Both the position numbers and the translations under genes were made by a program. Below, piece after piece: positions 3,807-8,342 of a stretch of 64,000 bases of DNA. The stretch lies in contig JAQWBQ010000011.1 in NCBI GenBank assembly GCA_028706295.1, positions 10,506 to 74,505 on the forward strand, read 5' to 3'. This DNA comes from Bacteroidales bacterium (GTDB taxonomy: Bacteria > Bacteroidota > Bacteroidia > Bacteroidales > FEN-979). Within the stretch, counting starts at the first letter, position 1, and each line of letters starts with the position of its first letter. Below the pieces are notes generated by a model. That model searched no databases. It was not told where the DNA came from and saw only the letters and a program-made list of their open reading frames with translations.

Positions 3807-4766
3807 TCAGCATTTCTGTTCCGAATCGGCATTATTTACCAAACTATTTTGCCCACCACCGAGATAAGGCTTGGGCAGGATGTTGAACGATAAATCGGGG
3901 AAGACAGCGTTCAGCTTCGTGTACATTCGTCCTTGAATAAACGCGGTCTGAGCCACGGATGTCGCTTCATCAAAATACACCTCAATGTCGATAAACACCC
4001 TTCTTCCCGACCGGCGGGTAAGGATGTTGCCAATGTTTTGGTAATTCGGAAATTCATCAGCAAGAACCCGCAAAATCCTGAGCTGTTCATTTTCGGATAT
4101 CGGAAAATCAATAAGTTTCAGAAAATTTTTCTTGATGAGGCCGACTGCCAGATAGATGAGGTAGCCGGTGCCGATCAGAGATGCCACCGCGTCGGCGTAG
4201 GCGGTGAAAAGATGGTGACCGCGGATTGACAGAATCAGGTTGATCAACAGCACGATGACCACACAAAAAGCGCCAATGGAGTCTGCTTTGAAAATGGCCT
4301 GGTACGCCTCGGCAATGGGACTTCCGGTTTGCCTGGTGATCCTGCGCGAAATGAGGAATAACCAGATTGCCCGGATGAGTTTAATGATCATGATGAGCTC
4401 CGGCAACCCAAATGTGATGTCCATGCGGGGGTGGATCAGCCGTTGGATGCCAAACCAGATCAGAATGATACCGCCCGGAAGACTTAAAGTGCCATAAAGA
4501 AAACCGGAGAAATTTTCCAGTTTGCCTGTACCGTATGTGTGCTTCAGGACAGAAGGACGCATCATGAAACGAACAGAGATGAATGAAAAAATATGCACGA
4601 TGAAACAGCAGGCCATGTCGACCGTGGAGACCCAAAGAATGAGAGAATGGCTCCGGATACTTCCCGCGAGACTGACAGCGCTCAAAAGAAAAAAAGAGTA
4701 AAAAACAAAGTCTATTAATTTCTTCATTTCTTTCGTTACAAAAGCATCATTGGATTTGTACGACAT
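3807..4766 (-). CDS. Cation diffusion facilitator (CDF)-like membrane protein, atypical
   Basis: The ORF runs to 4952, but the ATG at 4766 (MSYKSND...) precedes the first TM helix and removes an AT-rich low-complexity extension. It has six TM-like segments and a 'YGTGKLENF' loop equivalent to the CDF 'GYGRAE' motif. The C-terminal 'ILRVLADEF...RRSGRRVFIDIEVYF' resembles the CDF cytoplasmic domain. Confidence 0.6.
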   Translation of the reverse strand: MSYKSNDAFVTKEMKKLIDFVFYSFFLLSAVSLAGSIRSHSLILWVSTVDMACCFIVHIFSFISVRFMMRPSVLKHTYGTGKLENFSGFLYGTLSLPGGIILIWFGIQRLIHPRMDITFGLPELIMIIKLIRAIWLFLISRRITRQTGSPIAEAYQAIFKADSIGAFCVVIVLLINLILSIRGHHLFTAYADAVASLIGTGYLIYLAVGLIKKNFLKLIDFPISENEQLRILRVLADEFPNYQNIGNILTRRSGRRVFIDIEVYFDEATSVAQTAFIQGRMYTKLNAVFPDLSFNILPKPYLGGGQNSLVNNADSEQKC

Positions 4767-4984
4767 CGGGCTTCGATGATAAAATGTTGGTTCTTTTAAA
4801 AAGTAATCGGGTAAAATTAAATGAAAAAGTAAGAAGTAAAGAGAAATGTTCACACGGGAAGGAACATAAACACTTATTTGGTATACATTATCTGATTCGG
4901 AATGATATTTTTTACCTTTGACAATCTGCTGCGGTCGGAAACCTGGAAACAACTGCTTGCCGGATTGTTAAAAGTTTTTACAGT

Positions 4985-5950
4985 ATGAATTTCAACGAAG
5001 AATTCAAGAGCCTGAGAATGATCAGTGGGATCAGTCTCATCACTTCGCTCATCATCACCCCGCTCTCCATTGCTTTTTCAGTGATCACGGGCTCGGTCAC
5101 CCTGCTTATCTATTTTATCTGGGCCGCTACCGCTATTGCCGTGAAGCTCTTTGCCCTTATCTCCCTGCAAATCATGCAGAAGGAAAACCTGTTCATGTTC
5201 CCGTACGGCACGGGAAAACTTGAAAATTTTTCCTCCTTTTTCTTCGGATGCTCCATCGTACCGGTGGGGATATATTTTCTTATCGACGCTTTGGTGAGCC
5301 TGTTCGCTCCTTTGCCTGCAGTCACTTACCTGCTTTGCCTTGCGCCGGTTGTGCTATCGTTTCTCCTCACCCTGGGGCTGCTGTGTTACACCGACCGGCT
5401 CCTTCGCCGGAATAACAACCCATCGCCCCTGCTGAAGGCTTACAATGTTAATTTCAGGGTATCCCTGGCCTCCGACGGATTCCTCATGCTTGGTTTCCTG
5501 GCAGGCTACATCCTCTCGGCTAACGGTGCTCAGTTTCTCAGCCTCCGCATCGATCCTTTTCTTTCCATACTTCTTTCATTGTACATGATCAGGGTCGGAT
5601 TACCACTGATCATCCATAATTTCAGATCACTTGTAGACCTGCCCCTGCCTGAAAAAGAGATGCTGAAGATCCTCCGGGTGATCGCCGGGTTCAACCACCA
5701 TTATTCCGAATTGGGACTGATTTTCTCGAGAAGGAGCGGTAAACACAGGATTGTTGAGATCGAACTGTACTTCCCGTCAACAGCCAAGCTGCAGGATATT
5801 TACGCCGTTGAAAAGGAAATGGCATCCGCACTGCAAAACCTCATTCCCGGACTGAATTTCAGGTTACTTCCTAAAATTTTAGAAACGCAAGGCCTGGATC
5901 AGCCATTGACAAACCTGACCAGCGAAAACCAGCCTGGAGGATCAGTGTAG
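4985..5950 (+). CDS. Cation diffusion facilitator (CDF)-like membrane protein, atypical paralog
   Basis: 321-aa ORF, paralogous to 3807..4766 (shared 'PYGTGKLENFSSFFFG' and 'ILRVIAGF...SRRSGKHRIVEIELYF'). The two genes are divergently arranged across a 218-bp intergenic region. Confidence 0.6.
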   Translation: MNFNEEFKSLRMISGISLITSLIITPLSIAFSVITGSVTLLIYFIWAATAIAVKLFALISLQIMQKENLFMFPYGTGKLENFSSFFFGCSIVPVGIYFLIDALVSLFAPLPAVTYLLCLAPVVLSFLLTLGLLCYTDRLLRRNNNPSPLLKAYNVNFRVSLASDGFLMLGFLAGYILSANGAQFLSLRIDPFLSILLSLYMIRVGLPLIIHNFRSLVDLPLPEKEMLKILRVIAGFNHHYSELGLIFSRRSGKHRIVEIELYFPSTAKLQDIYAVEKEMASALQNLIPGLNFRLLPKILETQGLDQPLTNLTSENQPGGSV

Positions 5951-8268
5951 ATATTCGCGGGAGTCAGATTCATGACCGCGGAAAACCCTTCAATATCCGC
6001 CGGAGTATATTTATGGGAGTTTTCGGTATGTATTCTTTCGCCTTTGCGAAATGACAGAACCCGGTCGAAGCCGTGAATAACGGTTTCAAGATCCCTTTTA
6101 GCCACTAGATACATCTCAACACGGTGGTTGTCCTCGTTGTAAACGGCCTGGTGTTCGAAATCACTGCTGTTAAATCCGGTTCCCGCGAGGGCGTTGACGG
6201 CGTTCAGGATATTCAGGTTGAATGCTGCTGTAATACCCTGCCGGTCGTTGTACGCATCGTGAAGCATCCGCCGGTCTTTGACCATATCAAGGCCCAACAG
6301 GAATACAGCTCCCGGTTCCATCAGTTTTTTTATTCTTAACAGGAATTCATGGGCAACAGCAATATCCATGTTCCCGATAGTACTTCCGAAAAAGCAAAAA
6401 AGTTGTCGGCTGTTTCCGTTAATGGCCGGCAGTACTTTCATGAAATCAGCGACAATTGCATGAACGCGAAGAGCGGGGTACCGTTCCTTCAATCCGGCTG
6501 CCGATGTGGTCAAAGCCGATTTACTGACATCCACCGGGAAGTAGCGGACATCCCCGATCCGGTCTTCGGAAATGGCATCAAGGAGCATGGCAATTTTTAC
6601 ATGGTTTCCGCTGCCCAGCTCAATGATATCAAGGGTACTGAAATCACCAAGAATTGAATTAGCGTAGGTTTTCAGGATCGAAAGTTCGGTGCGTGTCGGA
6701 TAATATTCAGGCAGCGCGGTGATTTGTTCAAACAGGAGCGACCCCTTTTCATCGTACAAGAAATGGCAGGGAATATACTTTTTTTCACTGGTCAATCCTG
6801 TAATAAGCTGTTGAACAAGCTCAGCCTTCTTTTCGTTCTCAAGCAGGTTTGTTATCATAAAACCTGCGTCATCGCGCTCCCCGTAGGAACTTTCGGGTGA
6901 AAAGAGGGCGGGCATCTGAACCGGGATTCCCACGTCGACCAGATTGGCAGGATCGGCGCTCCATTCCAGCCATCCGCCATCGTATACCGACACCCGGGGC
7001 CACCCCATGAGCCAGGCATTGAACCAGGCTTCGCTTCCCCGCCATCCGGTGCCGCAGTAGAACGCAAGGCGCTTTTCGGGGACGATCCCGTTCTTTTTCC
7101 AGTTGGCGCTGATCTCGTGGTATTCGCGACAGGTCAGATCCAGATTCCGGTAATGCTCCATGTGGTAGGCATCGCTGCCCCCGTCGGCAAATAATGCTCC
7201 GGGAATCCTCCCTTTTTTGTCGATATAATGATATCCCGAAACGGCGCCGATGTATTCAGGCCAGCTCCTGACGCAGACCAGCGCGGCATCGGGCGAAGCG
7301 AGATATTCCCGGGCTTCAGGAAGGTCGATGATGAGTTCGGGATTCGCGGGGATAAATCCTCCGAAATCGGCTACCGGTTTTCTAGGTTCATCGGAATAGG
7401 AGATTTTAAAACCTTCATCGCTCCACGACTGGAACCCACCGTTAAGCGTCCTGACATCCTTCACTCCTGCGTACATCAGGATGGAGGCGACCCGCAGGGC
7501 TCCGATATCCCCGGCAGCGCTTCCGGGGAAGGCGTCCCTGTGGTCGGGATCCATGTACTTGCCATAAACAACTACGGTTGTATCGGCAGTGATCCCATGC
7601 GCCTCAAATACGCTTTTCAACGTTGGCGGACTGCACCGGTTCCAGTCGCCCGGGGTCTCCACAGCAAGGGTGTCGATATCGATGGCGCCCGGTATATGTC
7701 CCGAAAGGTAGGCCTCCCGGTTGCGGTAATGAACATGCAGGATGATGAAGCGTTCAAATCCCGGATGTTCCGTCGGAAGTCCGTTGATTTTGGATCGAAC
7801 CCAGGAGGCCGGAACCAGGTGGCGGTAATGGGGCAGAAATTCCATCGGCATCTCATCGCGGGAGACCCAGTCATCGACGAAACGACGGTAAACCGAAACA
7901 TCGGAATAACCTGCTTTTATGAAACAATTCGCGACTTGATCCGCAGGGCTGTCGTTGTACCCGTAGAGAATGATCTTTTCACCCGGGAGAATGTTCTTGT
8001 TCCTCACCGTTTCGATCCAGTCGATATAGTTTGTCCATTTTGCCGGCAAACTCCTTGCGCCGGGGATATGACCTCCCCGCACCTCATCCCGCAGTTTCCA
8101 TCCGTTGTAAGCATCGACAGGCCTGATGTCGATCAAGTGAACCCCTGTCATCCCCAAAAGGCGCTTCAACTCCGCGGTGGAGCATTCCCTTATTGTTCCG
8201 GCCATGGACTTTTTTTTGATCCGTATATCAACCGACATTTGACGATCTTGCGGATTCACTGATCGCAA
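5899..8268 (-). CDS. Fusion protein: EanB-like rhodanese-domain sulfurtransferase (N-terminal ~470 aa) plus EgtD/EanA-like L-histidine N-alpha-methyltransferase (C-terminal ~320 aa)
   Basis: The N-terminal part has repeated rhodanese modules (GHIPGA x3) and the active-site loop 'AFYCGTGWRGSEAW'. The C-terminal part aligns by eye with mycobacterial EgtD: 'LFEQITALPEYYPTRTE', 'IIELGSGNHVKIAMLL', 'YFPVDVS', 'FFGSTIGN', 'GITAAFNLNILNAVN', 'FEHQAVYN...RVEMYL'. The start codon is uncertain (8268, 8238 or 8205). Confidence 0.75.
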   Translation of the reverse strand: MRSVNPQDRQMSVDIRIKKKSMAGTIRECSTAELKRLLGMTGVHLIDIRPVDAYNGWKLRDEVRGGHIPGARSLPAKWTNYIDWIETVRNKNILPGEKIILYGYNDSPADQVANCFIKAGYSDVSVYRRFVDDWVSRDEMPMEFLPHYRHLVPASWVRSKINGLPTEHPGFERFIILHVHYRNREAYLSGHIPGAIDIDTLAVETPGDWNRCSPPTLKSVFEAHGITADTTVVVYGKYMDPDHRDAFPGSAAGDIGALRVASILMYAGVKDVRTLNGGFQSWSDEGFKISYSDEPRKPVADFGGFIPANPELIIDLPEAREYLASPDAALVCVRSWPEYIGAVSGYHYIDKKGRIPGALFADGGSDAYHMEHYRNLDLTCREYHEISANWKKNGIVPEKRLAFYCGTGWRGSEAWFNAWLMGWPRVSVYDGGWLEWSADPANLVDVGIPVQMPALFSPESSYGERDDAGFMITNLLENEKKAELVQQLITGLTSEKKYIPCHFLYDEKGSLLFEQITALPEYYPTRTELSILKTYANSILGDFSTLDIIELGSGNHVKIAMLLDAISEDRIGDVRYFPVDVSKSALTTSAAGLKERYPALRVHAIVADFMKVLPAINGNSRQLFCFFGSTIGNMDIAVAHEFLLRIKKLMEPGAVFLLGLDMVKDRRMLHDAYNDRQGITAAFNLNILNAVNALAGTGFNSSDFEHQAVYNEDNHRVEMYLVAKRDLETVIHGFDRVLSFRKGERIHTENSHKYTPADIEGFSAVMNLTPANIYTDPPGWFSLVRFVNG

Positions 8269-8342
8269 AGATATATTTAATTCAAAGTACTCCGGGATCG
8301 GAAGCGACGGAGTTTTTGGGAGCCACAGTAAGAATTACCTGA

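Follow-up and report, generated by a model that had tools for sequence, protein, structure and literature searches.

An EanB-EanA fusion in uncultured Bacteroidales as a predicted one-gene, oxygen-independent route to ergothioneine

The oxygen-independent synthesis of ergothioneine is known as the work of two enzymes, and a September 2026 review still describes this route as a two-enzyme pathway. In Chlorobium limicola these enzymes, EanB and EanA (Clim_1149 and Clim_1148; structures 6KTV and 6H98), are encoded by separate genes roughly 240-280 nucleotides (nt) apart. Here we describe a gene in which members of the same two families, with the same catalytic residues and in the same gene order, are joined in one polypeptide of 768 amino acids (aa). 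The gene lies on the minus strand, most likely at 5899..8205, of a stretch of 64,000 nt (hereafter the window) from the metagenome-assembled genome (MAG) of a Bacteroidales bacterium (assembly GCA_028706295.1, contig JAQWBQ010000011.1, positions 10,506 to 74,505). Its product is very probably a bifunctional enzyme in which one polypeptide unites the complete oxygen-independent ergothioneine pathway and which would have arisen by loss of the eanB stop codon.

Several other fusions of ergothioneine enzymes are known. Fungal Egt1 (Neurospora crassa) is likewise a natural fusion of a histidine trimethylase with an enzyme that forms a C-S bond; however, its sulfur enzyme is an O2- and iron-dependent sulfoxide synthase whereas that of the window fusion is a rhodanese, its methyltransferase is N-terminal, opposite to the order found here, and it depends on a further enzyme, Egt2, a requirement that the EanB route lacks. 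Membership in the Egt1 type was considered and rejected, as Pfam found neither an FGE-sulfatase nor a DinB_2 domain in the window protein and the domain order is reversed; the likeness to Egt1 is one of principle only. A bacterial EgtB-EgtD fusion of similar length (P0288, 770 aa; DinB_2, FGE-sulfatase and Methyltransf_33), known from its database sequence only, also has its sulfur enzyme N-terminal and EgtD C-terminal, but it is part of the aerobic route and has a sulfoxide synthase instead of EanB. The metallopterin-dependent MES of Caldithrix abyssi is also a bifunctional fusion that forms ergothioneine without oxygen, is found in anaerobe-type lineages and is co-encoded with EgtD; but it joins a Mo/W-pterin sulfurase to a cysteine desulfurase, has no rhodanese and leaves EgtD as a separate gene (PMC9516567). 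From the same order as the window genome comes 'EanAN', a standalone EgtD-type methyltransferase (EanA) that has already been expressed heterologously and supports ergothioneine production, though as a separate 333-residue protein paired with EanB from another organism (PMC11767532). Engineering for ergothioneine production includes artificial enzyme fusions (PMC13547098). A natural EanB-EanA fusion was not found in targeted searches of the EanB literature, which did not extend to Burn et al. 2017 and Leisinger et al. 2019, where a passing mention is possible.

The two halves of the predicted enzyme

The minus-strand open reading frame (ORF) at 5899..8268, 789 codons counted from a TTG, runs without a stop or frameshift, as an initial annotation of the window, made by a model from the letters and a list of reading frames, had stated. 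Residue numbers below are those of this ORF. Its N-terminal part, residues 27-449 (6922..8190, minus strand), aligned without gaps to C. limicola EanB (6KTV, chain residues 37-459) with 598 bits and 61% identity over 423 residues, whereas the next-best sulfurtransferase, YnjE, scored 287 bits; it is predicted to be a rhodanese-type, oxygen-independent ergothioneine synthase, and Pfam recognized three rhodanese stretches in the protein. The active-site loop YCGTGWRG, on which the initial annotation had based its assignment of an EanB architecture, lies at residues 404-411 (7036..7059, minus strand) in the residue alignment, and the 6KTV alignment bears that assignment out. With the EanB numbering anchored on PDB point-mutant chains (Y353F in 6KW0 and T414V in 6KVZ), Cys405, Thr407 and Arg410 of the ORF correspond to Cys412, Thr414 and Arg417 of C. 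limicola EanB, and Tyr346 (7231..7233, minus strand) corresponds to the catalytic acid/base Tyr353. Tyr353, Cys412, Thr414 and Arg417 are essential in EanB (PMC10903977, PMC9103826), and Cys405, Thr407 and Arg410 are invariant across 44 aligned rows (33 fused and 11 split relatives).

The C-terminal part, residues 472-784 (5917..6855, minus strand), is a predicted S-adenosylmethionine (SAM)-dependent histidine N-alpha-trimethyltransferase. It scored 344.4 bits against TIGR03438, the NCBIfam egtD equivalog (347.7 bits in the genome scan), compared with a curated cut-off of 290.9, and the histidine-specific methyltransferase family PF10017 (Methyltransf_33) was found by Pfam at residues 486-784 (E = 2e-100). 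Residues 472-784 aligned to Mycobacterium smegmatis EgtD (4PIM) with 205-208 bits, at 39% identity, and the ELGSG motif for SAM is conserved. For EgtD numbering we used the 4PIM chain, in which an offset of 2 puts each named residue on the expected letter. The residues that we take to line the histidine pocket of EgtD (Tyr39, Phe47, Tyr56, Tyr206, Thr213, Met252, Glu282 and Ser284) are all conserved in the window protein, and the catalytic and pocket residues are invariant or nearly so in the same 33 fused and 11 split relatives. EgtD Gly161 and Asn166 are represented in the ORF by Gly628 and Asn633, both invariant in the 44 rows; in EgtD these two residues govern the sequential trimethylation and are documented as essential (PMC9103826, PMC10903977). 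The identification of the C-terminal half as EgtD/EanA is thus upheld by a score above the equivalog cut-off and by intact key residues, and the catalytic Cys and substrate-binding Tyr residues that the initial annotation had proposed to check belong to residue sets that are intact in both halves.

Between the two modules lies a linker of about 22 aa, at about residues 450-471 (VQMPALFSPESSYGERDDAGFM; 6856..6921, minus strand), which is the gap between the structural alignments and agrees with the domain junction expected near 6860-6900.

From the identity of the halves to characterized enzymes (61% and 39%) we infer that both are active. The EanA module would methylate the alpha-amino group of L-histidine with three SAM to give hercynine; the EanB module would load a persulfide on Cys405 from a polysulfide-type donor and, with Tyr346 as acid/base, pass the sulfur to C2 of the hercynine imidazole to yield ergothioneine. 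Besides the fused gene, the 95.6%-complete genome has no EgtD-type and no EanB-type gene, and EgtB is absent from it (best score 72 bits against a cut-off of 360 bits); the fused gene therefore carries the whole inferred pathway. The genomic coupling of EanB to an EgtD-type methyltransferase has become covalent in this gene.

Distribution, origin and authenticity of the fusion

To see how often the two domains are joined, a fused-versus-split survey, which the initial annotation had proposed, was carried out. In a full-length search of 5.8 billion proteins, 25 clusters carried both domains on one chain, at 53-90% identity, and thousands of standalone EanBs of about 435 aa ranked below them. 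Genome surveys with the EgtD model covered 37 genomes of the window's own genus, an evenly sampled 401 of the order and a phylum sample of 401. An EgtD-type gene was found in 12 genomes of the genus (seven fused, one a fused frame with an internal TAG, four split), in 67 of the order, three of them fused (G000, G045 and G426), and in 142 of the phylum sample, where the single fused case is the window's genome. Nearly all EgtD-type genes of the order and phylum occur as split eanB-eanA pairs. The fusion is thus not unique but rare: it recurs, and split pairs prevail. With EgtD-type genes in 67 and 142 of 401 genomes, ergothioneine genes are widespread in this order and in Bacteroidota, a phylum in which the initial annotation suggested ergothioneine production, and are not in themselves news. 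The reverse order, EanA-EanB, was not seen among the top 150 of a representative search; this search was clustered at 50% identity, which hides close fused relatives (top match 46% identity) and does not allow cluster counts to be derived.

The gene order offers a simple precursor. In a named genome collection, eanB stands directly upstream of eanA on the same strand at all 72 loci with both genes, and 12 of these loci, in 12 species-representative genomes, are fused. All five cultured isolates with both genes (Marinilabilia rubra, Labilibacter marinus, Sunxiuqinia indica, Thermophagus xiamenensis and Saccharicrinis sp.) have them split. At many split loci, L. marinus and S. indica included, the two genes are in one frame with a single stop codon between them. 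In C. limicola, whose EanB is 100% identical to the crystal sequence, eanB is also upstream of eanA. The EanB-first domain order follows from this operon order, and because eanB lies directly upstream of eanA in the phylum, often with a single in-frame stop between, loss of the eanB stop would have joined the two frames, and the old eanB tail, the spacer and the N-terminal tail of eanA would have become a flexible linker. The isolate names of the fused MAGs (Loclat_bin, AM-..., SO_2017_GW1, and CSSed... among relatives) suggest, as names alone, lake, groundwater and sediment metagenomes.

Maximum likelihood trees were built from the concatenated domains, with the linker left out, for 44 rows and for 111 rows (44 fused sequences and 67 split pairs). 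They require five and six changes between the fused and split states, respectively, and at least four of these changes (fusion or fission) are forced by well-supported branches. Six groups, of 11, 26, 3, 2, 1 and 1 members, make up the 44 fused sequences; the window gene is in the group of 11, and one split locus is nested within a fused clade. The junction also differs between the fused groups: 'ETGIPV' may be followed directly by 'TNLL', 'ETGIPE' may be followed by the old eanA Met and 'VSEIL', or a linker of 20-27 aa may intervene. Such differing junctions fit independent stop-loss events. On these grounds the fusion has probably arisen at least about four times among uncultured Bacteroidales, with selection retaining it afterwards.

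Three observations on individual groups can be added here. A fused gene of 90% identity is carried by L056 (SACF01000034.1), a record titled 'Alphaproteobacteria bacterium isolate INTA.CYC.164'; the genome was placed in the genus of the window MAG, so the record is probably mislabeled. The fused frame with an in-frame TAG (L012/L064, JALNZC010000009.1) has it inside EanB at a variable position ('QSW*D'); the contig name gives a coverage of about 1.4x, and the frame is a pseudogene or else reflects a low-coverage error. Also common in the order are EgtD-type genes of a second class, with about 30-33% identity to the window EanA (L030-L040, L077-L134); an EanB precedes some of them, and for many the fetched flank holds no EanB next to the gene.

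An assembly or sequencing artifact, in which a frameshift or a lost stop merged separate eanB and eanA genes, would also give a single ORF. It would be in keeping with the rule of split pairs among relatives, some of them one stop codon from fusion, and the internal TAG on the contig of about 1.4x is evidence that this gene family is not free of low-coverage MAG errors. However, a Logan assembly from another run (SRR22315502) has the exact 768-aa protein, identical in DNA, as a single gene call. Two NCBI assemblies, an ENA assembly and a further Logan assembly hold a copy of 97.7% DNA identity, with its neighbors and the 52-nt overlap at its 3' end kept; the relatives L007 and L009 (species-level, 91.6% DNA identity) have a length of exactly 2,307 nt; and at least five further assemblies (NCBI, ENA, Logan) keep the 2,307-nt frame at 92-98% DNA identity. 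At 8% DNA divergence, the EanB half shows a ratio of nonsynonymous to synonymous substitution rates (dN/dS) of 0.18-0.21 and the EanA half one of 0.21-0.22, and both halves are under equal purifying selection; in the linker the ratio is 0.4-0.7, from few sites. Changes are mostly synonymous over the whole gene, and the linker has gained substitutions but zero frame-breaking indels. Fused sequences, 44 in all, are moreover spread over several clades. Because independent assemblies keep the frame and selection acts on it, a merged-gene artifact is excluded for practical purposes, and we give it almost no credence; the single-polypeptide fusion with EanB first, as read in the initial annotation, is genuine.

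Between the window gene and its copies in L042-L045 (97.7% identical), the synonymous divergence (dS) is 0.012 in the EanB half and 0.125 in the EanA half. A tenfold step of this kind suggests that homologous recombination had a breakpoint near the junction of the domains.

Alternative explanations and the benefit of fusion

Some observations weigh against a bifunctional enzyme working as one polypeptide. All fused loci of the named genome collection belong to uncultured MAGs; no sulfur-supply gene is adjacent to the fused gene; an internal Met in the region of the old eanA start (residue 472) would allow additional internal initiation; and the EanB half was poorly modeled by AlphaFold2 (AF2). 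One way in which the product might not be ergothioneine is that one half has drifted, to a general sulfurtransferase or to the methylation of another amino acid. Many EanB-like and Methyltransf_33 proteins do have unassigned substrates (PMC9516567), and the second EgtD-type class, about 31% identical, lives in the same order; but the EgtD equivalog score exceeds its cut-off, conservation extends to Glu282 and Met252, which specify histidine, to Asn166 and Gly161, which act in methylation, and to all EanB catalytic residues, the EanB half keeps its identity to a characterized enzyme over the full length, and purifying selection is equal on the two halves, which makes drift very improbable. A pseudo-enzyme half was also rejected. 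It is somewhat less improbable, though still not a reading we would favor, that the fusion exists at the DNA level only and that two proteins are made, by internal initiation near Met472 or by cleavage of the linker, so that the fusion would be functionally neutral. An in-frame ATG persists at the junction ('GFMITNLL'), the old eanA Met is kept in another fused clade ('ETGIPEMVSEIL'), and the linker is predicted to be disordered. Several fused clades, however, have no junction Met, as in 'ETGIPVTNLL', and full-length translation must therefore supply EanA there; furthermore, deeply diverged relatives, with as little as 53% identity, still keep the frame.

If a bifunctional enzyme that arose by stop loss is accepted, the question is what the fusion gains. 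The initial annotation had proposed that hercynine is channeled directly from the methyltransferase site into the EanB site. That the fusion was selected for such channeling, with a kinetic gain over the split pair, would agree with its repeated origin and persistence, and fusions of a methyltransferase with a C-S-bond enzyme have precedents in fungal Egt1 (PMC11664081) and the bacterial EgtB-EgtD protein P0288. Moreover, hercynine is a competitive product inhibitor of EgtD, so that its local consumption could help (PMC9103826). On the other hand, AF2, given an alignment of 25 sequences, produced a weak model of the whole protein, with a mean predicted local distance difference test (pLDDT) of 70.6, a predicted template modeling score (pTM) of 0.45 and no confident interface, and pLDDT below 50 over NCBI-numbered residues 415-447 points to a disordered linker; since the EanB half was poorly modeled, the relative placement of the two domains, and hence channeling, is not addressable by this model. 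In fused relatives the length of the linker spans 0 to about 27 aa and is not conserved between clades, and the EanB active site reportedly lies buried where a 13 Angstrom tunnel ends (PMC9103826). Split forms far outnumber fused ones and one split locus nests within a fused clade, so any advantage of fusion must be small. The proposal of direct channeling is thus unsupported, and selection for it is doubtful. We likewise think it unlikely that covalent coupling gives a real kinetic gain, through relieved product inhibition or true channeling, that explains at least four independent fixations in Bacteroidales; if it did, the fusion would apparently have become fixed in Bacteroidales of low-oxygen lakes, groundwater and sediments. 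The benefit is more readily inferred to be fixed 1:1 co-expression and proximity than a physical channel, and fixed stoichiometry and proximity, perhaps with relief of the inhibition of EgtD by hercynine, are plausible modest benefits.

As an antioxidant, ergothioneine is sought after, and considerable engineering has been directed toward short production pathways. If our reading of a bifunctional enzyme is true, the fused gene would be the most compact and simplest known genetic route, with one gene, no O2 and no pyridoxal 5'-phosphate (PLP) lyase. Fused and split versions within one genus, and several cultured relatives that are one stop codon from fusion, provide built-in comparators. For evolution, it would be a clean case of one operon pair fusing repeatedly, which parallels fungal Egt1, although the sulfur chemistry is unrelated and the domains stand in reverse order. 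Its interest, for biocatalysis and as a case of repeated fusion, is moderate, and it holds no conceptual surprise. In public records the fused proteins are named only 'L-histidine N(alpha)-methyltransferase'; as these records name only the methyltransferase, automated pathway calls will miss the sulfur-transfer step in genomes with the fused gene.

Gene boundaries, neighborhood and oxygen

While the frame at 5899-8268 stood, its start needs a correction: the coding sequence most likely begins at ATG 8205 (Met22 of the mechanical ORF, MAGTIRE...) and occupies 5899..8205 on the minus strand, with 768 aa and a stop. The form recorded at NCBI (P0134) has 768 aa and is identical to the window protein from Met22 on, and the N-termini of relatives begin at the equivalent position. 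The 21-codon TTG extension at 8206..8268 (minus strand) has no counterpart in these N-termini and is probably 5' untranslated. Its TTG forms the last three bases of TATCTTTG, a TAnnTTTG motif at 8266-8273 (minus strand) that by sequence inspection weakly resembles the Bacteroidetes -7 box and lies 58 nt upstream of ATG 8205; a properly spaced -33 TTTG is absent before it, and promoter and terminator scans gave no signal above chance.

At its 3' end the fused gene overlaps the convergent CDF-like gene at 4985..5950 (plus strand) by 52 nt (5899..5950), as correctly noted in the initial annotation, and the identical overlap recurs in gene calls on the contigs of all close relatives. Two divergent CDF-family paralogues (window 3807-5950) flank this end.

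The window genome encodes cytochrome bd and two subunit I genes of the heme-copper-oxidase family, whose model PF00115 also covers NO reductases (terminal oxidase genes at G000:C21:107250-108584, C62:7805-9229 and C127:2927-4423). Because of these genes it is unsafe to call the lineage presumably anaerobic, as the initial annotation did, and a microaerobic or facultative host is at least as likely as an anaerobic one. A genome with oxidase genes would nonetheless use the oxygen-independent route to ergothioneine.

Further fusions with EgtD at the C-terminus are present in public data (P0288, P0265, P0285, P0311 and P0250), in which the partners of EgtD are EgtB, a glycosyltransferase and an Ap4A-phosphorylase-like protein.

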